Assembly (NCBI GenBank): GCA_964016885.1
Contig: OZ024742.1
Location: forward strand, 307,706,001 to 307,770,000
From: Eledone cirrhosa
Taxonomy: Eukaryota
Direction: 5' to 3'
DNA length: 64,000 nt
In this document: one piece after another, positions 1,983 through 61,200 of the stretch
How positions within the stretch are numbered: the stretch's first letter is position 1
Layout: the number at the start of each line of letters is the position of its first letter
Translations under genes and position numbers: made by a program
Notes under the pieces: model-generated
What the model saw: the letters and a program-made list of their open reading frames with translations, nothing else
What the model was told of the DNA's origin: nothing
Databases searched by the model: none

Positions 1983-2270
1983 CAGGACGATACCAGGACT
2001 TAAAGTGGGAGGTAAAAAGGATTTGGAACTGCCATGAAGTCAAAGTGATCCCGATTGTCATAGGCGCACTGGGGACTATCTCCAAAAGTTTCCAGGGATG
2101 GTTAAAGAAAATCGGCCCCTTCACGCTTTTTGGAATGCTTCAAAAGGCATGCTTGCTGGGAACAGCAAGAACCCTCCGATACGTCCTGAATATCTGAGGC
2201 TGCAGGTAGTGACTTGATATTCATTCCAACGGACTTTCCAGTTAACTAACATCAATGACTGAGATTCAAG

Positions 2271-2272
<2 letters not shown>
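1981..2272 (+). mobile_element. R4/Dong-like RLE retrotransposon extreme 3' fragment (family E), flanked by (AAT)n
   Basis: 1988-2197 translates RYQDLKWEVKRIWNCHEVKVIPIVIGALGTISK...LQKACLLGTARTLRYVLNI*, then a short 3' UTR and (AAT)n on both sides. This frame is not in the ORF track. Confidence 0.8.
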
Positions 2273-2351
<79 letters not shown>

Positions 2352-2352
<1 letters not shown>

Positions 2353-3197
2353 TTAACCCATCAGTGGTTGGCATCCTCTGGACTGAAATCGGAGACTGAA
2401 GGACTGATTATATCAGCACAAGATCAGTGTCTGCCAACAAAAAATTACCAAGCCAACATAATAAAAAATGGAAGCAGCCCATTATGCCGTGTATGCAAAA
2501 AACAACCAGAGACCATTGACCATATAATTTCAATGTGCAGTCCTATAGCTCCAACCGAATACCTAAACAGGCATGACAGAGCTGCACAATACATACATTG
2601 GATAATGTGTAAGCATTTTGACCTGCCCCATCAAAAGAATTGGTGGGAGCATCAACCACCTCCCATACTTGAAAAAGATCACATCTCAATCTTGTGGAAC
2701 TTTAGCATCCAAACAGACCGAAAAATAGATGCAAATAGACCTGATATAATATTGAAGGACTTTAAAAAGAGGGTATGCCTGCTAATTGATATGTCCGTTC
2801 CAATAGACAAGAATGTATCTATAAAAACATTTGAAAAATTGAGCAAGTATAAGGACCTGGAGATAGAAATTGGAAAAATGTGGAAATTGAGAACTAAAAC
2901 AATACCAGTGGTTGTAGGCGCTCCAGGAATGATACCTAAGGGGTCTAATGATTACTTATCGCAAATCCCAGGAAACCCGCGTATAGGAGAAATACAAAAG
3001 GTAGTACTAATGGGAACTGCCCATATAGTAAGGAAGATTCTGTCAATATAAGTACATCACAAGTCTAAACACCTAAAGATGCATGTGTGAGTATGTATGT
3101 TCTTTCTTGAACATGGCGGACCTTGTTGTCTCTTGAGGTCACTGGTTGTGACTTGGTGATAACTCGTATGAACATAAAGCAAGATAAATGCAGCTGT
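2352..3197 (+). mobile_element. 5'-truncated R4/Dong-like RLE retrotransposon (family B); ORF 2368-3051 with CCHC zinc knuckle and PD-(D/E)xK endonuclease
   Basis: SSGLKSETEGLIISAQDQ, CRVC...ETIDHIISMC, RHD, ANRPDII...LIDMSVP, EKLSKYKDL. 3' UTR ends in (AAT)n and the 5' end abuts (AAT)n. Confidence 0.9.
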
Positions 3198-3221
3198 AAT
3201 AATAATAATAATAATAATAAT

Positions 3222-3858
3222 GCTTTCTTAATTAACCACAAGGGTTTACATAAAGTAGACATTAAGGACTGTACAGGACAATACAGGACGGTACAAATGG
3301 GCATTTCTGCGTGTAAAAAACAAAAACAGAGGATGTAACAAAAAATAACAATCAAAAATTCCCCAATAGGGGGGAGACTTCGGGGGGACATTTGTGGAGA
3401 AAGCCCATTAAAAGGTCACAGTGAACCTGACCACCAGGGCAAGTGCCCTCTCCCAGTTTTCTACCTTTAATTTACAGACACATACTCAGTGTAGGCCTAT
3501 TCACTCGGGTCATTCTTGCTTCTCTCACCCATCTTTCAACAAAATGCTGGGAAGAGAGCACTTCCCTCTCTACTCTGATTTTCCTTTTCAAATAAAATTT
3601 GAAAAAGTCAATCAGGGCATCACCGAAGAGGTAAGTGCTCGTCTTCAGCCCTTTCAAACGTGTCCACCATACTATCTCTTTCGCCATGGCCACCAGACAG
3701 ATAAAAACTGCCTGCCCTTTCCGGCTAAAGGAAGAGGGCGGGGCAATCCTCACGATGGACTCAGCTGATAGCCGGATCCGTCCTACACGCGACACCAGGT
3801 GTTCGACATAAACGCACAAGTCAGCAATGCTCGGACACTGGACGAGTGCGTGCAGGAC
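3222..3858 (-). mobile_element. 5'-truncated Tx1-type LINE 3' end inserted in (AAT)n
   Basis: ORF 3472-3888 HALVQCPSIADL...AMAKEIVWWTRLKGL...RIRVEREVL...ERWVREARMTRVN is homologous to the ORF2 C-terminus at 47.8-48.2 kb. Both junctions are AAT repeats. Confidence 0.9.
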
Positions 3859-3870
3859 AATAATAATAAT

Positions 3871-5203
3871 AAAAAGAATCGACACCAAAGTCCGTAAGCT
3901 ACTGACCTGTAATAGGATGCACCACCCAAAAGCAGATGTGGATCGTCTTTACCTTCCTAGAACTCAAGGAGGCCGTGGCCTGATCCAATTTGAACTTGCT
4001 TACAAGACCACCATCATTGGACTGGCCAAATACCTTGAAACAACTAACGACTGTATGCTGAAATTTGTTGAAAAGCATGATAGAAGTAAGTAGCTTCATT
4101 CTATCTTGAAGGAGAGCAAAAAATATGCTACTGACCTCATGCTTGATACCCAGGCTGGACAGACTAAAGCAACTGTTGTAACTGAAGCTGCTAGGCACAT
4201 AAAATCACTGGCAAAAGCAAAAGGACAAGGACAATTAGCATCACATTGGGAGCAGAAACCTCTGCATGGCAAATATGTGGCCTGTAGCAAACAAGCTGAC
4301 GTTGACCAAAAGCACACCCATCAGTGGCTACGTAGTTCAGGGCTAAAGGCGGAGAGTGAAGGCTTCATCTTAGCTGCCCAAGACCAAAGCTTATTGACTC
4401 GTAATTACCAGGCCAATGTGATGAGAAAAGGAATAAACCCAAAGTGCCGATTCTGCAATGCTGAGGTTGAAACAGTGGATCACTTAGTCTCTGGATGTAA
4501 TATTTTAGCACCAGTAGAATACAAATATAGACATGACAGAGTTGGCCAATATCTACACTGGGTCGGCATTACAAAATCAAAGCTGAAGACAAATGGTACA
4601 ATCATCACCCTGAGGCTGCAACTGAAGGAGAAAAAGTAACAATTCTCTGGGACTTTCCTGTACATACTGACAGGACCATAAAAGCAAATAGACCTGACAT
4701 CATTGTAAAAGATCAATATATCAAGGTCTGTTTGTTGATAGATATGAGCATCCCATGTGATCACAATATCGCGGCAAAAGAATTTGACAAGCTACGAAGA
4801 TATAAAGATCTGTTTATTGAAATTGAGAAAATGTGGCACCTCAAGGCTGTTACAATACCAGTGATTGTGGGAGGACTGGGAATGATCAAGAAAGGAACAG
4901 AACAATATTTGCGAATGATTCCTGGTTTGCCCTCTCTGCACGAGGTGCAAAAAATTGTTTTGACTGGTACTGCACACGTATTGAGAAGAACAATACTTCT
5001 GTAAGATTGATATTCCTCCTTGTATTTACATATGCATATGCACATGTGTATGTATACTGTTTTTTATTTATTTTATTTTTTAAATTATAATCAATGTGCT
5101 GTATTAACTGGCTTACCAATGCACACTGTGAATTTATTTGCCCTAGGTGTCAGGAAGACACTCGGCATATATCTCAGAAACAATAATGAAATAAAATAAA
5201 AGT
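3871..5203 (+). mobile_element. 5'-truncated, frameshifted R4/Dong-like RLE retrotransposon (family C)
   Basis: HHPKADVDRLYLPRTQGGRGL, KPLHGKY, WLRSSGLKAESEGFILAAQDQ, CRFC...ETVDHLVSGC, RHD, ANRPDI, IDMSIP, RYKDL, IPVIVGGLG. Ends in (AAT)n. Confidence 0.9.
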
Positions 5204-42434: not shown

Positions 42435-42725
42435 ATCTATCTATCTGCCTGTCTGCCTGTCTGCCTGTCTATCAATCTATCAATCTATCTGTCTGTTTGC
42501 CTGTCTTATATATCTATCTATCTATATATCTATCTATCTATCTGTCAGTCTATATCTGCGTCTCTATCCCTGTATCTTGAACCCTCTGTTTCTCTCATTT
42601 TCTATGTTTCCATTGTTCTGACTTTCTATCAGGCATGTCTCTGTTTATTTCTCTACCCATATCTCTCTCCATCTCCTTCTCCTCCTCTCTCTCACATCAA
42701 CCTCTATCTATCTATCTATCTATCT
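42435..42725. repeat. Degenerate (TCTA/TCTG)n and TC-rich tract; landing site of the Tx1 array
   Basis: Directly visible; pure (TATC)n immediately precedes the LINE 5' end. Confidence 0.85.
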
Positions 42726-42927
42726 TGATAGAGTAAGACACGCTTCGCATCGGCTCCGCTATTCCATCGGGATTTACCCTTACTATTGTAAGTACCGGAT
42801 ACATTTTTTAGTGCAACACATTTGGAACACTAACCCCTGTTATTTAGGGAAACATTTTTGCATTTACCCCCTTTTTAGGGGGTAAAATAAATATCTATTT
42901 TTGCCGAAAAATTTCTTTCTTGGCAGC

Positions 42928-44763
42928 ATGGCGGAAAAGATGGCAGACATGTCTGCCATTAGCTCTGCCACGCCCCCCAAGTCTGAAGAACAAAAAATAA
43001 TTACAACAAAATTAGACATTGAAACAAACAAACAAAATGAAAAAACAAATGTTAAGGAAAATGAGCAAACAGAAAACAAACAAACAGAAAATAATACAAA
43101 TAACGACAGGGCAACTTTCGCCCAGAAAACAAAGCAATCCATTACATACACACCAATTGACCTAACTGCCGCCAGAGAAAAACTGGCCGAAGCAAAGAAA
43201 CATATTGTTTTGGGGGAGAACGGAATGTTTTCCATTAACTCCCCCCCAGAATTCAAGAAAGCCAGAGCAGAAAACACAGTTATATACAGAACTATACTGA
43301 ACCAGACAAGAAAGCCAGCACAGCCCAGCCAAATGGAAATAGAGTTAGTCCTAAAAGACTATATGAAGAATATTCTCTTCATACGAAAGGACCGACTCTA
43401 TGGCAGCATTTCGGTCCTAACAAGAGACAAAGAAACGGCGGAGAAGCTTTCCCTAAGCCCACTCTCGTCGACAACATATAGCTTCTATCCCTCCTACATG
43501 GGTAGAAGAACACAGAGAGTAAAAGTAAAAACAATGCTGCCCACAATGGACTTCTGGTGGGCTATTGCTGGCTTCATTGATATGGGCGAAGACACTATGC
43601 TGTCAATGGGGAAGGCAACTGGAGATGCGTTCCTGGGAATGGGCCTCGACATACTAGTCCAAATGAGGCCCGAAAGAATAGCACAAATCCCGGATCGCAT
43701 CTGGCTGGATGACCTTACCCCAATAGACATAATTGTAGAGGGGAGAAGACCAGCATGCTATTTATGCATGGAAAGGGGACACGTTAAGGCTAACTGCCCG
43801 AAACGTATCCCCCAAAAAGGACTATTGCCCACACCCACCACAAACAGTACACCAGCACCACCCACCTCCAAAAATACACTAATACCACACACAGCAAACA
43901 AAATACAGACACCACCAACCACAAACACAACACAAACATCACCACCACCAGCACCAAACACAAGCACGACACAAAAATCACCACCACCAACCACAACACA
44001 AACATCACCACCACCATCACCAACCACAAGCACGACACAAACATTACCACCACCACCACCACAAAACCCATTCCAAACAAATAATAAAAAAAACAGTAAC
44101 AAATCTACCCCTCCCGCAAAAAAAAAACAACCACACAACACGTCCCTCCCACCTAGCGCTGAAGAGTTTCCCCCAACTTCTGAAGAAGAAGGAGGAGAAG
44201 CCTTCAGACAAGTTAAAAGAAAAAAAAGAAAACACACACCCAGCACACCACAAATAACCCACACACAAACACCAACTCCAATCAAAAACACCCCACCCTC
44301 AACAAACAAAAATAAATCTGCGCCTCCCCTCTCCGAAACATTGACAGCATCACAAAAAAAGACGTTGCAATACACATATATAAATAAAGAAAACAAAAAA
44401 CTGGTTAAATTAATAAACAATAACCCTATGATGCAGACCGAAGGGCCAAACTTTATCTCAACAGAGAACTTCACCCATTTAAAAATGATAAAGGTCCCTC
44501 TGGACCTTTATCGTTCCTTAAAAGAACAATTTAGACGGGACGTGAGCCCCCCCTGTTTAAAACCGTTGAATCGCGTCCTCTTGAAAGATTTCCCCATAAC
44601 CGCCCCTCTCCCTGACACAACTCCAAATACCCCAACCCCACCACACACGTGTACCCCCACACCACCACAAAACATCCCTCCACCCAACACACCTGATGCC
44701 ATGGAAATTACGCAACCCGGAGAGGTAAGTGCTTTTCTTTCTTCACTTTCAACACCAAAATAG
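42928..44763 (+). CDS. LINE ORF1p (gag-like, single CCHC zinc knuckle, long Pro/Thr-rich tail)
   Basis: Open frame of about 611 codons from ATG 42928; CYLCMERGHVKANC (CX2CX4HX4C); basic KRKKRK motif; directly upstream of ORF2. Confidence 0.88.
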   Translation: MAEKMADMSAISSATPPKSEEQKIITTKLDIETNKQNEKTNVKENEQTENKQTENNTNNDRATFAQKTKQSITYTPIDLTAAREKLAEAKKHIVLGENGMFSINSPPEFKKARAENTVIYRTILNQTRKPAQPSQMEIELVLKDYMKNILFIRKDRLYGSISVLTRDKETAEKLSLSPLSSTTYSFYPSYMGRRTQRVKVKTMLPTMDFWWAIAGFIDMGEDTMLSMGKATGDAFLGMGLDILVQMRPERIAQIPDRIWLDDLTPIDIIVEGRRPACYLCMERGHVKANCPKRIPQKGLLPTPTTNSTPAPPTSKNTLIPHTANKIQTPPTTNTTQTSPPPAPNTSTTQKSPPPTTTQTSPPPSPTTSTTQTLPPPPPQNPFQTNNKKNSNKSTPPAKKKQPHNTSLPPSAEEFPPTSEEEGGEAFRQVKRKKRKHTPSTPQITHTQTPTPIKNTPPSTNKNKSAPPLSETLTASQKKTLQYTYINKENKKLVKLINNNPMMQTEGPNFISTENFTHLKMIKVPLDLYRSLKEQFRRDVSPPCLKPLNRVLLKDFPITAPLPDTTPNTPTPPHTCTPTPPQNIPPPNTPDAMEITQPGEVSAFLSSLSTPK

Positions 44764-44768
44764 ATCAA

Positions 44769-47700
44769 TTGAGAGTTGGCTGTTTGAACGCGCGTGGCCT
44801 GAGCTCAGCTTGGAAGCAAGCAAAGCTTCTAAGTGACCTCAGGTCAGAAAGTATAGATGTGATGGTTGTTTGCGAGAGTCGGATCAGCAGCGTGAGACAG
44901 CTGGCGCCCGCCTTCGATGACTTTGAGATGCACGCATCTCTCTGTCAACCCGGAGGCGGGGGGGGGGGGGGAGTTGCCGTACTGCTGGATAAACGTCTGA
45001 CTCTCGACGTACAGATTGTTCACTCGGACCCGGGGGGTCGATTACTGGTGCTGGACGTCGGAGGTGGTGAAGGCGGGGCTTTCAGACTGGTCGGTCTTTA
45101 TGCTCCCTTCGGGGCGGAAAGAGCCGACTTCTTCCAACGTCTGGAGACTTTTCTAGGAACGTCGCGTTCCCTGCTTTTAGTGGGGGACTGGAATGGAATC
45201 CTAGATGCGCGTTGGGACTATGCAGGGGCATGTCCCGATAGAGGGGGGTGTAGCAGCCTCAAGGGGTTACTCGATCGATTCGACCTGGTCGATAGATTTC
45301 GACTAGATTGTCCAACTGCGCCAACCTGGACCTGGGCAAACCGCAGTGGACAATCTAGATCGTACCTAGATAGGTTTTTGGTTAGGAGTAAGGATAGGGA
45401 CGTATTTAGTTGTCCAGAACTGATCATGGTTGGCTATTCAGATCACAAATTAGTGACCTGCGTGGTCAACCTTGATAGAACGCATAGACAGGGTCCCGGT
45501 TACTGGAAGATGAACTTGTCCTTACCGACAAAGAAAGATTACAGAAACCGGATTAGTAGCTTAGTTAAGATGCGGTTGACGGGAGCGATCGTCAACAGTA
45601 GGTGGTGGATATCTCTAAAGAGAGAGATTAGAGTAAGTTCGATAGGTTACAGTAAGGAACTAGCGGCGAATAGAAATAGGAGGGAAAGGGAGTTAACAGA
45701 TAAACTAGAAGAGGCGATTAGGAGCGGAGACGTAGCCAGAGTGTTAGCGACGAGAACGGCATTGAGCCAGTTCTTTGACGCGAAGCACGAAGGCTGCGTT
45801 GTCCGAAGTAAAATACGTGCTTTAGGAAACGAGGGGACCAAAGCTGTTAGCTGGGCCCGCGTGACAGAAGCCAAGAGTGGGATTAAATCCACCATTCGGT
45901 CTTTGCGAGACCAGGATGGACGGGTGATCCTTGAACCTGAGCGAATGTGCGAGACCTTTCAAAGGCACTTTGCTCGACTGTTCGGAGGTGGCGGGGGGCC
46001 GGATGGGGATGTGGACTTCGGTCCATACCTCGACGGTCTACCGCGTCTTTCGAGCGGCGAAGCGGAGTGCTGCGAAGGGCCAATCACAGCCACTGAAATC
46101 GGGGAAGCGCTCAGCCAATGCAGCAGACGCAAATCCCCGGGTCTCGATGGTCTACCATACGAACTTTATTTAGCTATGCCGGTCTTGTTCTCCGAACTCC
46201 TCGAGGCTGTCTATTGCAACTGGCAACAGAACGGGAGAATTCCCTGTTCTGTGACCAAGGGCGTGGTCACGCTAGTGAGGAAGGACGAGAGCAAGGGGGA
46301 CGACTTAAGTAACTTTAGGCCCATAACTCTGCTGAATGCAGAGTTACAGATTTTGGCCAAGGTGTTGGCGAAGAGGTTGGCGCTTGTGGTGGGTGGTTTG
46401 GTGGGAGACGCGCAGACATGCGCTATCCCGTCCAGGTCCATTCACGACAACCTCCACCTCATGCGATACATCATAGAGAGGGTTGGCTACGAACCCGGCT
46501 TTAGTGGGGCCCTGATCAACTTGGATCAATCTAAGGCGTTCGATAGGGTCGACCATGGTTACCTGGATGCGGTGCTAGCGGCGGCGGGCTTCGGACCCGT
46601 TTTCAGGGGCTGGATTTCTGCCATGCACAGTGGCAACATCTACTCTAGGATTAAAGTAAACGGCTACCTCTCGGAGCCGTTTCAAATCACCCGATCCATC
46701 AGACAGGGGTGCCCCCTCTCCTCCCTTCTGTACGTATTGACTCTCGAGCCACTGCCGCGGAAGTTGGAGTTGCTGCGGGGCATACCCCTGGAACCGGGAT
46801 TGCACAAAGCGGTCTCGGCCTATGCCGACGACGTAACAGTAATGGTGGCGGACGCCTCGGAAATCGGGGCGATCGCCACCCTACTGGAGGAATACGAAAG
46901 GCTGACGGGGGCTAAGCTGAACCAGGACAAGTCAGTCGGTTTGCAACTCGGAACGTGGAGGGGCAAACCGATGCCGTTAGACGGTGTCGTCGGGCGGTGG
47001 ACGGAGGGCCCGGTGAAGCTGCTCGGGGTCTGGTTCGGACCGGACCTCCAGGTGGAGAAGAATTGGGGCGAGGTGACGAGCAGGGTGTTTGCGCTGACCC
47101 AGAAGTGGGCCAAGTGCAAACTATCACTGAAAGGTCGGGCGGAGGTGACGAACGCTTACATAGCGTCCGTCATCTACTACCGCCTGACCGTCGTGCCTTG
47201 CCCCAAGGAAAAGCTCACCATCATGGAACGCATGCTCTTCCAGTTCCTCTGGAAGAAGCGGCCTCCCATGGTGAGGAGATCCATCTGCTGCCAGCACCCT
47301 TCGAAAGGAGGGCTGGGTATGCCGTGGCTGTTGATGCGTAGGCACGCATTGAGGCTACGGCATCTACAGGTATTCCTCAACGGTCAGCCGGTGTGGGCCC
47401 CGTTTGTGAGGCGAGCCTTCCCACAGCTCGTCTCGCTCACCGAACTGCAATCCTGGGTGAAGCAAAGACCGAGAAAACTGGGCAACTGGCACACTGAGTG
47501 TGCCCAGGCGCTCACGGCTATCTGGCAAGCGGACCCGACTGTCAGTGGAGAATCCACCTCGACATTCTATAGAGGGTTGGTGGCTAGCAGGGGCGACGAC
47601 ACCCTTGGAGAGTCGCTAGGCATGGAGGAGGACGAACTGGCCAGCCTGTTCGGTAGAACTTTCGGCCCGGGACCCATGGACAACTTCCAGAGGTCCCTAG

Positions 47701-48203
47701 CCTGGCAGTGTTACCGGGGGGCTCTGCCCGTTCGAGAAAAGCTCTACAGACACGGGCGCCCGGGCAGGGATCCCGCGAAAAAGATCTGTCCCAGATGCGT
47801 GCGCGACGAGGAAACCGTTGCGCATGCACTGGTACACTGCCCGGGCGTTGCCGATCTGTGGGGCTACGTCGAACGACTGCTGTCGCGTGTGGCGCCGATT
47901 CGATTAACCGCCGAGTCTGTGGTGAACATCAAGCCGCCTCCTCCCTTCAGAAATGAAGCAGAGGCGGTCTTTCTGTGCGTAATAGCCATGATGAAAGAGG
48001 TTGTGTGGTGGACGCGCCTGAAAGGTCTGAGGTCGGGTGACTTTCTCTCCGGCCATCACCTGGTTTACTTCTTCCGATACCACTTCGGAAGAAGAATCAG
48101 GATGGAGAGAGAAGTGCTTGGTCCCAGACAGTTTTATGAAAGGTGGGTGAAAGAAGCGAGAATGGCCCGTGTAAATGGGCCTTCTCTCTACATTGTTCTG
48201 TAG
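44769..48203 (+). CDS. LINE ORF2p: APE endonuclease, reverse transcriptase and C-terminal zinc-binding motif (1144 aa, uninterrupted)
   Basis: EN: CLNARG, VCES, GDWN, SYLDRF, SDH. RT: KSPGLDG, NFRPITLLN, LDQSKAFDRVDH, RQGCPLS, YADD, KLLGV. Zn: CPRC...ETVAHALVHC. Starts at TTG, so the start is uncertain. Confidence 0.95.
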   Translation: MRVGCLNARGLSSAWKQAKLLSDLRSESIDVMVVCESRISSVRQLAPAFDDFEMHASLCQPGGGGGGGVAVLLDKRLTLDVQIVHSDPGGRLLVLDVGGGEGGAFRLVGLYAPFGAERADFFQRLETFLGTSRSLLLVGDWNGILDARWDYAGACPDRGGCSSLKGLLDRFDLVDRFRLDCPTAPTWTWANRSGQSRSYLDRFLVRSKDRDVFSCPELIMVGYSDHKLVTCVVNLDRTHRQGPGYWKMNLSLPTKKDYRNRISSLVKMRLTGAIVNSRWWISLKREIRVSSIGYSKELAANRNRRERELTDKLEEAIRSGDVARVLATRTALSQFFDAKHEGCVVRSKIRALGNEGTKAVSWARVTEAKSGIKSTIRSLRDQDGRVILEPERMCETFQRHFARLFGGGGGPDGDVDFGPYLDGLPRLSSGEAECCEGPITATEIGEALSQCSRRKSPGLDGLPYELYLAMPVLFSELLEAVYCNWQQNGRIPCSVTKGVVTLVRKDESKGDDLSNFRPITLLNAELQILAKVLAKRLALVVGGLVGDAQTCAIPSRSIHDNLHLMRYIIERVGYEPGFSGALINLDQSKAFDRVDHGYLDAVLAAAGFGPVFRGWISAMHSGNIYSRIKVNGYLSEPFQITRSIRQGCPLSSLLYVLTLEPLPRKLELLRGIPLEPGLHKAVSAYADDVTVMVADASEIGAIATLLEEYERLTGAKLNQDKSVGLQLGTWRGKPMPLDGVVGRWTEGPVKLLGVWFGPDLQVEKNWGEVTSRVFALTQKWAKCKLSLKGRAEVTNAYIASVIYYRLTVVPCPKEKLTIMERMLFQFLWKKRPPMVRRSICCQHPSKGGLGMPWLLMRRHALRLRHLQVFLNGQPVWAPFVRRAFPQLVSLTELQSWVKQRPRKLGNWHTECAQALTAIWQADPTVSGESTSTFYRGLVASRGDDTLGESLGMEEDELASLFGRTFGPGPMDNFQRSLAWQCYRGALPVREKLYRHGRPGRDPAKKICPRCVRDEETVAHALVHCPGVADLWGYVERLLSRVAPIRLTAESVVNIKPPPPFRNEAEAVFLCVIAMMKEVVWWTRLKGLRSGDFLSGHHLVYFFRYHFGRRIRMEREVLGPRQFYERWVKEARMARVNGPSLYIVL

Positions 48204-48444
48204 GTGAAGAAGTGAAGAGGAAAGGGGGAGCGCCTCCTCTCTGGGCTTCCCCCACGAAAAGAGTTGCACACTTTTCGGGGGTATGTGCAATCCCCAACAC
48301 GCCCCCTCCCTTTTGAGGACTTTTTATTGTTATATTATTATTGTTATTCCTTTTTCTTTACTCGATTTATGTAAACTCCCCCACTGTGTAAATGTCCCCT
48401 TCTTTTGTGCCCTCGTGGCAAATAAATAGAAATTTATCTATCTA

Positions 48445-49018
48445 GTAGAACGACTATTGTCGCGGGTGATACGAATCCAGTTGACCACCGAGACCATTGT
48501 CATAATCAAACCGCCACCCTCCTTCAAAAACGACGGAGAGGCGGTTTTCCTTTGTGTGATAGCTATGGCGAAAGATGTTGTATGGTGGACAAGGTTAAAA
48601 GGGCTGAGGTCAGACACCTTTCTCTCCGACCAACAACTGATTCTTTCTTTCAAATACCACTTTGGAAGAAGAATCAGGATGGAGAGAGAGGTGCTGTACC
48701 CCAGCAAGTTTTATGAAAGGTGGGTGAAAGTGGCGAGAATGGCCCGAGTGAATGGGCCTTCTCTCTATATCAGCCTGTAGGTTGAGGAAAAGGAGGAAGA
48801 GAGGAAAGAGGTAAAAGCTCTTCGTACTCCTGGAGATGAGGGTTGCACATTTTTTTTGGGGGGGGATGTTACCCATATGAAATGTCTCCCCTATTGGGGA
48901 AAATCGATTGACTTTTAAATTACATTTGTGATAATATTTTACACGTTTTTATTGTATGTAAACTTCCCCCTTTGTATTTATCCCCTTCTTTTGTGCCCCT
49001 GTGGCTAATAAAGAAACA
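48445..49018 (+). mobile_element. Tx1 copy 2, 5'-truncated (3' UTR type b)
   Basis: ORF 48457-48780 matches the ORF2 C-terminus; AATAAAGAAAC then (TCTA)n. Confidence 0.92.
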
Positions 49019-49043
49019 TATCTATCTATCTATCTATCTATCT

Positions 49044-50018
49044 ACTGAGTGTGCCCAGGCGCTCACCGCCCTCTGGCAGGCGGATCCGGTTATCAGTGGA
49101 GACTCCACCGCAACATTCTATAGAGGGCTGGTACGCAGCAGGTGCGACGACGCCCTCGGAGAAGCCCTAGACATGGAGGAGGACGAACTGGCCAGCCTGT
49201 TCGGTAGGACATTCAGCCCGGGACCTATGGACAACTTCCAGAAGTCCCTGGCCTGGCAGTGCTACCGAGGGGCTTTACCCGTTCGAGAAAGGCTCTACAG
49301 ACACGGGCGCCCGGGTAGGGACCCCGCCAAAAAGATCTGTCCCAGATGCGTGTGCGACGAGGAAACCGTTGCACACGCATTAGTACACTGCTCGGGCGTA
49401 GCCGATCTGTGGGGCTATGTCGAACAACTGCTGTCAAGGGTGGGACCGATCCGGTTGACCACCGAGTCTATTGTAATGATCAAGCCGCCTCCCCCCTTCA
49501 AAGATGAAGCAGAGGCGGTGTTTCTGTGCGTAATAGCCATGGCGAAAGAGGTTGTATGGTGGACGCGTCTGAAAGGACTGAGGTCGGGCACCTTTCTCTC
49601 TGGCCAACAACTGGTCCGTTTCTTCCGATATCATTTCGGAAGAAGGATCAGGATGGAGAGAGAGGTGCTGCACCCCAGCCGTTTCTATGAAAGATGGGTG
49701 AAAGTGGCGAGAATGGCCCGTGTGAATGGGCCTTCACTCTACATCAGACTATAGGTGAGGAAGATGAAAGACCAAGGGAGCACCCCTTCTCTGTGCTCCT
49801 GAGGAGAAAGGTTGCACACTTTTTTCGGGGGTGTGTGCGACCCCACAAGGCGCCTCCTCTCTATTGAGGATTTTGTTAAAAATTTTATTTTTTGTTATAT
49901 CTTATTTTATTTTTATATTTTGTTATTGCCTTCTCCTTATTGAGGACGCCTTTTTGTGTAAACTCCCCCCTTTGTACTTGTCCCACTTTTGATGCCCTAG
50001 TGGCAAATAAAAGAAATA
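49044..50018 (+). mobile_element. Tx1 copy 3, 5'-truncated
   Basis: Open frame TECAQAL...NGPSLYIRL to 49754; 3' UTR; (TCTA)n on both sides. Confidence 0.92.
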
Positions 50019-50064
<46 letters not shown>

Positions 50065-50065
<1 letters not shown>

Positions 50066-50194
50066 TGTTATTTTATTTTATATATAGTTTATTGTTATAT
50101 ATTAATGTTAAAGTTGCATGATTTTTATGTAAAACCCCCGCCGTCATGTCTTGTAGTGTCCCATTTTTGTACGCCCGTGACAAATAAAGAAAGA

Positions 50195-50195
<1 letters not shown>
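50065..50195 (+). mobile_element. Tx1 copy 4, 3' UTR only
   Basis: TATGTAAAACCCCC...GTCCCATTTTTGTACGCCCGTGACAAATAAAGAAAG parallels the other 3' ends; flanked by (TCTA)n. Confidence 0.75.
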
Positions 50196-50269
<74 letters not shown>

Positions 50270-50285
50270 ATATCTATCTATCTAT

Positions 50286-52767
50286 AAGACCGAAAAGGAA
50301 CTGGTAGATAAAGTAGAAGAGGCACTTAGGAGTGGCAACGTAGGCAGCGTGCTAGCGACAAGAACGGCCTTGGACCAGTTCTTCGACAACGAGGCGAAGT
50401 TCTGCGAAAGGCCGATTTCGGCCGCTGAAATAGGGGACGCGCTGAGCCAATGCGGCAAACGCAAATCTCCAGGTCTCGACGGTCTACCCTACACATTTTA
50501 CGTAGCAATGCCGGACTTGTTGTCCGGTCTCCTGGAAGTGGTCTACTGCAACTGGCAGCAGACCGGGAGAATTCCCAGTTCTGTCACCAGGGGCGTAGTC
50601 ACACTAGTCAGGAAGGACGAGAATAAGGGGGATGACATAGGCAACTTCCGGCCCATAACTCTGCTAAACAGAGAGTTACAGATTTTGGCCAAGGTGTTGG
50701 CAAAGAGGCTGGCGCTTGTCGTCGAAAACCTGGTGGGAGAAGCGCAGACATGCTCAATCCCGACCAGGTCCATACACGACAACCTCCACCACATGCGATA
50801 CATCATAGAGAGAATAGGGTGTAAACCTGGCTTCGGTGGGGCCCTGATCAACTTGGATCAGTCTAAGGCTTTCGATAGGGTTCACCATCGTTACCTGGAT
50901 GCGGTGCTCCAGGCGGCAGGCTTCGGACCCGTGTTCAGGGGCTGGATTGTTGCAATGAACAACAGCAACATCTGCTCAAGAGTCAAGGTGAACAGCTACC
51001 TCTCAGAGCCGTTCCATATCACGCGATCCATTCGACAGGGATGCTCTCTCTTCCCCCTTCTGTACGTGCTGACTCTCGATCCACTACTGAGGCAGTTGGA
51101 GCTATTGCAGGGCATCCCTCTGGAACCGGGACTGCGGAAAGCAGCGTCAGTCTACGCCGACGACGTCACAGTAATGGTGTCGAGCACCTCGCAAATCGAG
51201 GAAGTTGGCACCTTACTGAAGGAATACGAAAGTTTCACAGGAGCGAAGCTGAACCGGGACAAGTCCATCGGTTTGCAACTCGGATCGTGGAGAGGCAAAC
51301 CGATGCCTTCCGATGGCGTCGTCGGGCGCTGGACGGAAGGACCGGTAAAGCTGCTCGGGGTCTGGTTTGGTCGGGACCTCCAGGTGGAGAAGAACTGAAA
51401 CGAGGTGACGGCCAAGGTGTTTGCACTCACCCAGAAGTGGGCTGATTGAAAACTATCCTTGAAAGGTCGAGCGGAGGTGGCGAACACTTTTATAGCGTCC
51501 GTCATCTACTACCGCTTGACCATCGTGCCTTGTCCAGCCAAAACGCTCACCAAAATGGAGCGCGCGCTCTTCCAATTCCTTTGGAAGAGCGGGCTCCTTT
51601 GGTGAGAAGATCCCTCTGCTGCCAACACCCTTCAAACAGAGGGCTGGGGATGCCGTGGCTGACGATGCGCAAACACGCGCTCAGGCTGCGGCACCTCCAC
51701 GTACTCCTCACCAGACAACCGGTGTGGGCTCCGTTCGCGAGGCGAGCATTTCCACGACTAGTCTCGCTGACCGAGCTGCAGTCCTGGGTCAAGCAAAGAC
51801 CGAGGAAAATGGGCGACTGGCACATCGAATGTGCTCAGGGGCTCACAACCCTCTGGCAGGTGGACCCGCGCGATCAGTGGAGACTCTTTTTCGTCATTCT
51901 ATAGAGGGTTGGTCCGCAGCAAATGCAACGACGCGCTCGGAGAAACTCTGGGTGTAGAGGAAGAGGAACTGAGCAGTCTGTTCGGTAGAACCTTCGGCCC
52001 GTGACCGATGGACAACTTCCAAAAGTCCCTGGCCTAGCAGTGCTACCGGGGAGCTCTACCAGTTCGAGACAAGCTCTACAGACACGGGCTCCCGGGCAGG
52101 GACCCTTCGAACAAGATCTGTCCGAGATGCGAGCGTGATGAAGAAACCGTCGCGCACGCATTCGTACACTTCCCTGGCGTTACCGACCTGTGGGACTATG
52201 TAGAACGACTATTGTCGCGGGTGGGACCAATCCGGTTGACCACCGAGACCAATGTCATAATCAAACCGCCACCCTCCTTCAAAAACGAAGGAGAGGCGGT
52301 TTTCCTTTGTGTGATAGCTATGGCGAAAGAGGTTGTATGGTGGACAAGGTTAAAAGGTCAGACAACTTTCTCTCCGACCAACAACTGATTCTTTCTTTCA
52401 AATACCACTTTGGAAGAAGAATCAGGATGGAGAGAGAGGTGCTGTACACCAGCAAGTTTTATGAAGGGTGGGTGAAAGTGTCGAGAATGGCCTGAGTGAA
52501 TGGGCCTTCTCTCTATATCAGCCTGTACGTTGAGGAAAAGGAGGAAGAGAGGAAAGGGGTACAAACTCTTCGTACTCCTGGAGATGAGGGTTGCACATTT
52601 TTTTCGGAGGTATGTGTTACCCATATGAAATGTCTCCCCCTATTGGAGAAAATCGATTAACTTTTAAATTACATTTGTGATAATATTTTACACGTATTTA
52701 TTGTATGTAAACTTCCCCCTTTGTATTTATCCCCTTCTTTTGTGCCCCTAGGCTAATAAAGAAACAT
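50286..52767 (+). mobile_element. Tx1 copy 5, 5'-truncated, internally deleted and degraded (3' UTR type b)
   Basis: RT motifs in 50349-51398; jump FFD to EAKFCE removes about 90 codons; stops and frameshifts downstream; 3' UTR nearly identical to copy 2. Confidence 0.92.
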
Positions 52768-53087
52768 ATCTATCTATATATACATATATCTATTGATCGT
52801 ATTTTATATCTATCTAATATATATTTCTCATTCTCATTCCTCTTGCACTTGTTCGTATTCCCCGCATTCGTTCTGTTTTGTTATTTTTATTTAATTCTTC
52901 TTTGGGTAATCCACCAGTGCAGCTGTCAGTTTTCATCATAACGAAGGTGCATATTCGACAATGGACTCAAGCATGTACAGACTTAGTTTGTCATTTAGTA
53001 TAGAACTTCAGTCACATCCAGCTTATGCATTATGATGCAAATGGCGAGGTTGATGGAAATAATGCAGATTATCTAATGGACGAGGTG

Positions 53088-58231: not shown

Positions 58232-61200
58232 CTGAGGATGTGTGTGTTAAGGTTTGTAACGTATGCATGTCCACAATTTACAACAGATTCTATTCAAAGT
58301 CGGGATAGTTATAGCCTTTGGTCAGGAAAAGGTCATGAAGCAAAAATGTTTCAAATCCATCAACAATAAGGGCAAAAATCGATCATGATCATTCCCCTCT
58401 CTATAATTTAACTGCTTTACTCTCTCTGTCGCTCTTCACTCCCTATATGACAACACTGCAGAGAGAGAAACAATGTTTATGATCAAATGGAGCGTTCCGT
58501 ATATTCCCTCTCTCTATAATTTAATTGCTTTACTCTCTCTGTGGCTCTTCACTCCCCATATGACAACACTGCAGTGGAGCGTTCCGTATTGAGCGTTCCG
58601 TATTGACATACGGCTTATGTGGGGCATTTTCAATCGGTTTATTGCAAATAGCAACCCGCAAAATAACACTTCACATAACAGATTAATGCTATAGACCGAT
58701 GAATCGGAATGTAACCCGTGAACTTTTTCCTGGGCAAAATTATTCGAACAGACATGACCTCATTGCCAGAGTGTTCAGACTGAAACTGGCTAAACTCATG
58801 GCTTTAATCAAAAAGGGCCAGGTATTTGGGGCTGTAAAATGTGACATGTTCACAGTCGAATGGCAAAAACGAGGGCTGCCACATGCTCACATTTTGATTT
58901 GGTTAGCTGATAAAATCAATTCAAATGCCATAGTCAGCTTCATTTCGGCTGAAATCCCTAACCCAGCAACTGACCAGGAATTACATGACATCTTCAAAGC
59001 TAACATGGTCCGTGTACGTCTGGTCCTAATGAGCATCACACGTGTCTGAAAGGGGGTCGTGCAGTAATGGATACCCCCAAAGATTTGTTGACCAGACTCA
59101 GACTAGTGGCGACGGGTACAGGCGGAGACGGCCCGAGAACGGTGGCTTCACCACAACAGTAAAGGGAGGTCAAGTCGACAATAGATGGGTGGTCCCTTAC
59201 TGCCCGCTTCCCTTGAAGAAGCGGGCAGTAAGGGACCACATCAACGTTGAGTTTTGCAACTCCGTCAAGTCGCTAAAATACATATGCAAATATGTAAATA
59301 AGGGGTCTGATGCCGCAATGTTCGCATTTCATGCTGAAAATAGCAGGGACGAGGTCACAGAATACCTGGCGGGGCGGTACGTCAGTAGCAATGAAGCTTT
59401 TTGGCGCTTATTTGGTTTACCCCTACACCAACGGCACCCCGCCGTAATACAGCTTGCGGTACATTTGGAAAATGGGCAAATGGTTTACTTTACGAACCAA
59501 ACCGCCGCCAAGTTGGCCGCCGATCCGAAAGAGACCACTCTGACGGGTCTCTTCAAACTTTGCCAGTTCGATACATTTGCGCAAACAATTGTGTACCCCC
59601 AGGTTCCATCCTACTTTTTATGGTCGAATAAACACTTGGGTGCGAAGAAAATCAGGTCAGGCTGTTGAAAGACATCCTGATGTAAAATTTGACAGCTGTC
59701 TTGGAAGGGTTTACACTGTGCTCCCAAGTCTTCATGAAGTTGTAGGCCCACAAAGTTTTCAGGACCTCAAAACTGTTGATGGAGAAATATGTGATACGTA
59801 CCGGGAAGCCTGCTTTAAGCGTGGTCTTTTGGAAGATGATTCGCAATGGGATTCCACTTTAACAGAGGGTGCTTTGTTGAAATCACCTAAAGGTCTACGG
59901 GAACTATTTGCCATTTTGCTTCAAAAGTGTGAATTGGGTGATCCCAAATCTTTATGGGTCAAGTACAGAAACTTCATGTCTGAGGACTTCCTGCGCCTAG
60001 CTCATCTGCAGTATACTTCAGTGGAAGTTGGTTACAGCGTCATTATCTACAACAGGGGACTCATTGATATCGAGGACGCCCTCCTCAACATGGGTGGGAG
60101 TGAGTTGGCGACGTATGGCTTGCCGTCAACCGTCAGAGAAGAAGCTAACACGTTGGCCCCGGATTTTTTGCGGAAAACAGCATTTAACATCGAATCCCTT
60201 TCCCAATACTTAGAGGAAAATGAGCCCAAACTTCTGTCGGACCAAAGGTTGGCCTATTTAACTATCATTGACGCGGTTCAAAATAAGACTGGGGGTATTT
60301 ACTTTCTCGATGCTCTTGGGGGTACCGGAAAAACTTTTGTAACGAAATTGATTCTTGCTAAGATTCGTCAGGAGAAAAAAATTTCGTTGGCCGTTGCATC
60401 GTCCGGGATCGTTACTACTTTGCTGCCGGGAGGCAGGACAGCACTTCAACCTTTAAACTCGCCTTGGATTTAATAAAAACTGAGACACCAACATGCAATA
60501 TCAGCAAGAGTTCACACGAAGGTCTGGTTCTCAAAAAATGTTGTTTCATTGTTTGGGATTTGTGCACAATGGCACACAAGGGTAACCTTGATGCATTGGA
60601 CTGGACCCTGATAGACATTACGGATTCTACGGCACCTATGGGTGGCGTAACCCTTCTGCTATCAGGGGATTTTCGGCAAACGCTGCCTGTCATCCCCAAT
60701 GGGACAAGAGGTGATGAAGTGCGTGCCTGCCTTAAGTCGTCCATGTAGTGGTTCTAGGTGAAGAGTTTGTACCTGAACACAAAAATTCGTGCTCATTTGC
60801 ATGGTGAGAACATGTCTACAGCATTTGCTCAGAACATTTTAGCACTGGTGATGGCAAGGTCTCTGCGGATGACAAGGGCGGCATAGCAATCGACTCCCTG
60901 TGCAACATTGTGAGCAGCCCTTCTGACCTTTGGGAAGCAGTTTTTCCTTTAAAAACCTCGATTGGCTCAGCGAAACAGCCATCCTTGCTCCGGAAAATAA
61001 TATGGTTAATTTTATTAACGAGCAGCTGATTGAGAAGAATCCCGGTAAAGAGCACATCTTCAAATCTATCGACCGGACGTCAGACCCCGACGATATCGTT
61101 AATTATCCGGTTGAGTTATTAAATTCCCTTGAGCCTCCAGGGCTCCCACCTCACATTCTTAAGTTTAGCGTTGGCTGTCCCATTATGCTAATAAGGAACT

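Follow-up and report, generated by a model that had tools for sequence, protein, structure and literature searches.

Targeted insertion of an L1/Tx1-group LINE family at (TCTA)n repeats in Eledone cirrhosa

We analysed 64,000 nucleotides of the Eledone cirrhosa genome (NCBI GenBank assembly GCA_964016885.1, contig OZ024742.1, forward-strand positions 307,706,001 to 307,770,000; the whole stretch is called the window), in which five co-oriented copies of a long interspersed nuclear element (LINE) lie between 42726 and 52766 with (TCTA)n on both sides of each. We found that the repeat is the insertion target of this family and not a tail encoded by the element, because target sites are duplicated, because the repeat also stands at truncated 5′ junctions, and because flanks that are not TCTA match on the two sides of a copy. 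The specificity is a preference for a TATCT core and is not strict, with subfamily C looser than subfamilies A and B. That insertion is targeted we regard as nearly certain, and with good confidence we interpret the array as five separate copies of an L1/Tx1-group LINE that inserted one way at TATCT steps of (TCTA)n.

The repeat is the insertion target

The array is laid out as follows (window positions).

42703..42725, + strand: (TCTA)5-TCT run adjoining copy 1 at its 5′ junction, target and probable RNA leader
42726..48434, + strand: copy 1, full-length LINE of the young subfamily A, 3′ boundary uncertain by 2 nt
48435..48444, + strand: TATCTATCTA spacer between copies 1 and 2
48445..49018, + strand: copy 2, 5′-truncated, subfamily B
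49019..49043, + strand: (TATC)6 spacer between copies 2 and 3
49044..50018, + strand: copy 3, 5′-truncated, subfamily C
50019..50065, + strand: (TATC)11 spacer between copies 3 and 4
50066..50194, + strand: copy 4, fragment of a fifth subfamily, 3′ untranslated region (UTR) only
50195..50285, + strand: (TATC)22 spacer with one interruption between copies 4 and 5
50286..52766, + strand: copy 5, 5′-truncated, decayed subfamily B with stops and an internal deletion of ~270 nt
52767..52778, + strand: terminal TATCTATCTATA flank after copy 5

All five copies end in AATAAA..GAAA plus two bases, run into the repeat without poly(A) and have TCTA directly at their 5′ side, as the initial annotation of this DNA had described. 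It had counted at least three 3′ UTR variants; there are four types, A (copy 1), B (copies 2 and 5), C (copy 3) and a fifth type (copy 4) that is present at other genome loci too. Copies 2 and 5 are 94.8% and 93.6% identical to a full-length B copy and copy 3 is 97.4% identical to a full-length subfamily C copy fetched from the genome, while identity of the truncated copies to copy 1 is 71–81% where alignable (copy 4 did not align). With four subfamilies, this degree of divergence and different truncation points in copies 2, 3, 4 and 5, the proposal of independent insertions rather than tandem duplication holds for this array.

Copy numbers were obtained as exact matches to 3′-end patterns across the 3.0-Gb assembly, with reversed patterns as controls. 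We found 547 (A), 5,846 (B) and 4,132 (C) 3′ ends and none with the reversed controls, so that the family has more than 10,000 3′ ends genome-wide. Subfamily A copies occur on many chromosomes and differ from the A majority by a median of 0.44%, and the ORF2 (second open reading frame) proteins of subfamilies A, B, C1, C2 and D are 79–90% identical. For junction analysis we sampled 60 of the first 62 positional matches of A (the remaining two were both full-length), the first 30 of B, and the first 30 plus six of the next eight of C; junction counts refer to 65 full-length and 56 truncated copies, after five loci that ended before the 5′ junction were dropped. A further copy of the family directly adjoined 38 of the 60 A copies, with no polarity of stacking among the sampled A copies (24 upstream vs. 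25 downstream neighbours). Co-mobilised B-A dimers were considered and rejected, as a comparison of four loci showed the B pieces upstream of A to be unlike one another in both variants and truncation. At L018/L019, L025/L026 and L051/L052, full-length A copies are repeated exactly in tandem, with one interrupted spacer recurring on either side, which suggests that arrays may also form by local duplication.

TATC opened the 3′ flank in 60/60 A, 25/30 B and 29/36 C copies, and at least two repeat units were present in 54, 24 and 17 of them, respectively (95/126 in total), while no copy among the 126 lay in the opposite orientation relative to the repeat. Among truncated copies, 22/56 had a perfect 8-nt TCTA run at the 5′ junction (background 0.18–0.59% of positions; the lower value is the share of window positions outside the array with such a run within 16 nt) and 32/56 a looser 5-mer (background 6–9% of positions). 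No family copy lay upstream at 10 of the 22 strict and 19 of the 32 loose junctions. Both the 3′ flanks (95/126) and the truncated 5′ junctions (22/56) exceed the share of more than 20% of flanks of one type that serves as a criterion in PMC4494074. The initial annotation had named a repeat confined to the 3′ side, with random 5′ flanks, as the outcome that would speak against targeting, and the truncated junctions do not show it.

Target duplications of at least 10 nt that were not pure TCTA occurred in 15/56 truncated copies, compared to 3.2 ± 1.6 among permuted pairs, none of which reached 15 in 500 permutations. About 10 of the 15 carried a locus-specific interruption and were 13–21 nt long; the remaining five were (TA)n or distinct from the pure repeat by a prefix only. 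Nearly all duplications start at TAT, from which we infer that the TAGA strand is nicked first at GATA/GATA, within two bases on either side. At loci where the 3′ flank was (TA)n, a hexamer repeat or a minisatellite, the same sequence stood in the 5′ flank, and the tail is therefore not fixed. There were 45 distinct truncation points among 52 scorable truncated junctions, as independent insertions predict. Microhomology was not clearly enriched at truncated junctions without extra bases (overlap of at least 1 in 16/27 vs. 41% under the null, with 16/68 junctions unscorable). The (TCTA)n/(TAGA)n targeting proposed earlier is thus upheld as a preference for the TATCT core but not as a strict rule, since some copies lie in (TA)n, (TC)n, (CCTA)n or unique DNA.

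Fixed 5′ junctions of subfamily A

Full-length copies made up 55/60 of the A sample but 10/61 of the scored B and C copies (p = 4 × 10−18), a contrast to be read with the caveat that the copies of B and C, which are older, were scored with single copies as reference, such that decay may inflate their truncated share. TCTATCT lay directly upstream of 55/55 full-length A copies and ATCT directly upstream of 30/30 top-scoring 5′ ends, while the 5′ ends of C and D were more ragged. A pattern for the A ORF junction, 2 kb from the 5′ end, had 624 matches genome-wide, about as many as there are 3′ ends. Among copies with a short 3′ run, the interruption was repeated on the 5′ side in 2/17 full-length A compared to 13/29 truncated copies, and in 12/21 of the truncated copies with a TCTA flank (p = 0.006 vs. 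full-length A). The interruption being so seldom repeated, the 5′ run of full-length A copies is no plain duplication. Target duplications in full-length copies were not significantly more frequent than in permuted pairs (10/65 vs. 8.2). The repeat on the 5′ side, which the initial annotation had taken as evidence of insertion for every copy, serves as such for truncated copies but not for full-length ones, where it behaves as if derived from the element. DNA contigs of two samples (four runs) covered the element's 5′ end in all cases, with no piece spanning the 5′ junction.

On balance, these patterns favor a short repeat leader on subfamily A RNA, the cDNA of which would anneal to the target. 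Several sequence features lie near this junction. An inverted repeat, TCTATC-TT-GATAGA, joins the A 5′ end and the upstream repeat (42720–42732), and by eye it does not fit a hepatitis delta virus (HDV) or hammerhead ribozyme core. TCAGT is an initiator-like motif, which in B is completed by the last TC of the upstream repeat. A second motif resembling the splice donor GTAAGT occurs within the A and C 5′ UTRs, at ~42788–42793.

In the mechanism that we propose, the endonuclease would likely nick the TAGA strand at a TATCT step, where reverse transcription would be primed from the element's fixed 3′ end. Each insertion would duplicate ~13–22 nt of target, as is seen in truncated copies, and would leave a landing site on both sides, at which later copies could pile up. 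The start of subfamily A RNA likely lies within the upstream repeat, a few bases in, and the end of the cDNA may anneal to the target and finish the insertion seamlessly, by analogy with R2, which would explain the fixed 5′ junctions. Subfamily A ORF2 would be translated by termination-reinitiation at an AUA that overlaps the ORF1 stop.

Site choice and the start of ORF2

A sister family, 60–69% identical in ORF2, lies in (ATT)n at 15/16 top-scoring 3′ ends, and one truncated copy of it is present in the window.

3221–3858, − strand: sister LINE, truncated, (TTA)n on both sides, 57% amino-acid identity to copy 1

Four full-length copies of this sister family start after (ATT)n. C-terminal fragments of another element lacking long terminal repeats (non-LTR; weak zf-RVT match) lie at 2263–3051 and 4094–5004 on the + strand, in the same (AAT)n tracts, opposite in strand to the sister LINE. 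The endonuclease of the ATT sister differs at many positions, among them the tip of the hairpin which in L1 contacts DNA (PMC1950540); across two groups, such correspondence between endonuclease and target is a correlation only. The Tx1L endonuclease is sequence-specific in vitro, according to the portion of PMC1950540 that concerns it. We consider the endonuclease probably the main chooser of the site.

Alternatively, the RNA could pick the site, with transcripts that read through UAUC units and pair with nicked (TAGA)n, such that a lax endonuclease would suffice. AATAAA stands 10–15 nt ahead of the 3′ end and no poly(A) enters the copies; with the signal that close, RNA cleavage would fall in the flanking repeat. 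The loops of the TCTA- and ATT-family endonucleases are alike and TATC starts the 3′ flank of 60/60 A copies, all of which such pairing would accommodate. However, the 3′ boundary is precise in the 7/36 C and 5/30 B copies that have no TATC, which argues that RNA pairing is not required, though it may still help, and the 3′ interruptions duplicated on the 5′ side come from the target and not from the donor. Choice by the RNA thus appears unlikely. Far less probable still is that the repeat is an encoded or slippage tail, together with a 5′ head, on an element that inserts at random, with the array built by tandem duplication. Such an origin would agree with the element-derived 5′ repeat of full-length A copies and with the exact tandem duplicates at L018/L019 and L051/L052, but the five copies belong to four subfamilies with 71–81% identity to copy 1, and solitary truncated copies also carry the 5′ repeat (10 strict, 19 loose). 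A tail is further at odds with the locus-specific duplications and the 45 distinct truncation points among 52.

Several observations count against the mechanism as we propose it. No TCTA motif was found at the scored 5′ junction of 24/56 truncated copies; at least some of these are chimeric, lie in (TA)n, are cut by later insertions or have alignments that stop early. Subfamily C is loose, with at least two units in just 17/36 3′ flanks. The endonuclease hairpin differs little between the TCTA and ATT families. Finally, no Rfam ribozyme family matched 42600–43100 above any gathering score, a negative that covers described ribozymes only; any leader would then derive from where transcription starts or from read-through.

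The coding features of copy 1 are as follows.

42928..44763, + strand: ORF1, 611 amino acids, with a Pro/Thr-rich tail
43756..43797, + strand: CCHC zinc knuckle of ORF1 (PF00098, E = 0.0013, 19.2 bits, below the 20.8 cut-off)
44725..44730, + strand: candidate splice-donor-like GTAAGT close to the ORF1 end, shared with B, C, D and the ATT sister
44760..44763, + strand: overlap of ORF1 and ORF2, ATA overlapping the ORF1 stop TAG (ATG in sister subfamilies)
44760..48203, + strand: ORF2, 1147 amino acids from ATA, with apurinic/apyrimidinic-type (APE) endonuclease, reverse transcriptase (YADD) and C-terminal zinc motif

The ORF1 knuckle is spaced CX2CX4HX4C, ORF2 matches PF03372, PF00078 and, weakly, PF13966, and its endonuclease and reverse transcriptase catalytic residues align with human L1 ORF2p. 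Copy 1 differs from the subfamily A majority by 0.28%. The initial annotation was right that both ORFs are open and all catalytic motifs present, but the start of ORF2 is not a normal one, with no ATG ahead of the endonuclease. As judged from sequence, copy 1 may or may not be competent for transposition, because its ORF2 carries three private amino-acid changes.

An ATG before the endonuclease is present in B, C, D and the ATT sister, whereas in subfamily A, which has lost a short stretch close to the ORF1 end, ATA occupies the ancestral ATG place and the ORF1 stop overlaps it. No ATG stood before the endonuclease in 56 aligned A copies, and genome-wide junction patterns had 624 matches with ATA and 0 with ATG (the ATG pattern being partly degenerate). 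We found that ORF2 variants common to at least three A copies comprised 28 synonymous and 21 non-synonymous changes, compared to 112 and 286 among private variants (p = 1 × 10−4), with a non-synonymous to synonymous rate ratio (dN/dS) of 0.23 for variants in at least six copies and 0.8 for private ones. Shared variants fall on nested haplotypes and no stop in ORF2 is common to at least three A copies. These results indicate that subfamily A ORF2 is under purifying selection (dN/dS about 0.23) and, together with the nesting, that ORF2 is needed in cis.

Subfamily A could instead be non-autonomous and moved in trans, or reach ORF2 by a −1 slip on an A-run that would give a fusion. The lack of ATG in all 56 aligned copies would suit either route, the A AAA TAG geometry permits a one-tRNA −1 slip, and only 6/53 scored A copies, copy 1 included, have both frames open. 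The nested haplotype groups without ATG, the selection on shared ORF2 changes and the absence of widely shared stops argue against trans-mobilisation, and ATA stands exactly at the ancestral ATG position. We give these routes a small chance. We lean towards reinitiation at AUA rather than frameshifting; it would fit the overlap geometry and the tolerance of calicivirus reinitiation for non-AUG codons, as described in the relevant part of PMC5972666. Many of the frame breaks fall in a G-run of the endonuclease coding region (44954–44971), the length of which differs from one A copy to another; they may reflect real slippage or be assembly errors. L1 ORF2 is said, from work by Alisch in 2006, to tolerate loss of its AUG. 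A splice fusion of ORF1 and ORF2 in A was rejected on reading the sequence, which has no in-phase acceptor before the first catalytic motif; separately, the ORF1 stop lies inside or just behind GTAAGT (44725–44730) in all subfamilies. Predicted RNA pairing of the ORF2 start (44748–44783) with the ORF2 stop (48175–48212) ranked first of ~1,100 windows in A and C1 and 4th, 17th and 28th in B, D and C2, with the own partner best in 3 of 5, and is only partly borne out in these models.

More tentatively, and with somewhat less than even confidence, we suggest that subfamily A RNA starts in the target repeat and that, with no ribozyme involved, the 5.7-kb element lands whole and seamlessly nine times out of ten, that its enzyme is made from an AUA coupled to the ORF1 stop, and that subfamily A and its ATT sister form a pair for finding what sets microsatellite choice. 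The choice of microsatellites by APE-type elements is not well understood, in the words of the portion of PMC3812793 that treats it, and close sisters with TCTA and ATT targets would allow a direct test of endonuclease swap vs. RNA swap. Full-length insertion into an abundant repeat bears on the LINE truncation problem and on gene-insertion tools, and a subfamily in which a non-AUG ORF2 is both fixed and under selection would provide evidence from nature that reinitiation can do without AUG. LINEs would often break or multiply the GATA loci used as markers in these animals. Elsewhere in the window, an ORF at 59544–60473 (+ strand) has a PIF1-like helicase match (E = 1 × 10−18) and is probably a piece of a Helitron.

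Comparison with known systems

The order of endonuclease, reverse transcriptase and zinc motif, together with 5′ truncation and target-site duplications, places the family among APE-type non-LTR elements of the L1 group. Its best solved relative is human L1 ORF2p (PDB 8uw3; 170 bits, E = 4 × 10−49), compared to 80 bits for R2, while four proteins labelled YTX2/TX1 by NCBI reach 285–331 bits. In a reverse transcriptase tree of 40 rows, which held no curated Tx1 and no vertebrate L1, the family falls in an open fork with YTX2/TX1-labelled proteins, as its own clade with an Argonauta protein and apart from the vertebrate proteins so labelled. Among named proteins, one from Argonauta hians is closest (67% in the reverse transcriptase region), and the ESM Atlas returned only unnamed reverse transcriptase/endonuclease clusters. 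A CCHC zinc knuckle in ORF1, as copy 1 has, is a feature of the Tx1 clade. Membership in Tx1 is likely, as judged against database-labelled proteins only.

Tx1 elements that target microsatellites are already known. According to the passages on them in PMC4494074 and PMC3812793, Kibi and Koshi insert in (TC)n and (TTC)n of teleosts and crocodilian families in (TTCC)n/(TTTC)n, and like these the present family is a two-ORF APE-type LINE, probably of the Tx1 group, in a pyrimidine-rich microsatellite. It differs from Kibi and Koshi in its target, (TCTA)n/(TAGA)n and not (TC)n or (TTC)n, and in its invertebrate host. A repeat annotation of Octopus vulgaris (2026) reports 13 recently active L1-Tx1 families, and the word "target" is absent from the accessible part of its text (PMC13282606). 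We found no literature report of a TCTA/GATA target, and within the literature searched it is apparently new; this search took in neither Repbase and Dfam nor subscription papers or the PMC4494074 supplement, any of which could contain one.

Compared to human LINE-1, the family shares the layout of ORF2p and all aligned catalytic residues, but it has no poly(A) tail, a microsatellite target and a CCHC knuckle in ORF1, and it scores much lower against human ORF2p than against TX1-labelled proteins. An ORF2 start that adjoins or overlaps the ORF1 stop is shared with SART1, LINE-1 and caliciviruses, as the part of PMC5972666 on these systems describes; unlike subfamily A, which has AUA in ~600 copies, SART1 and L1 both naturally keep AUG. 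The nearest parallel for the 5′ junctions is R2, which, according to PMC3774820, likewise has uniform 5′ junctions and target sequence at the RNA 5′ end that anneals to the target, its ribozyme cleaving upstream in 28S sequence. R2, however, has a restriction-like endonuclease and an HDV-like ribozyme, whereas the present family is APE-type and has no Rfam match, such that a comparable junction would be reached by other means.

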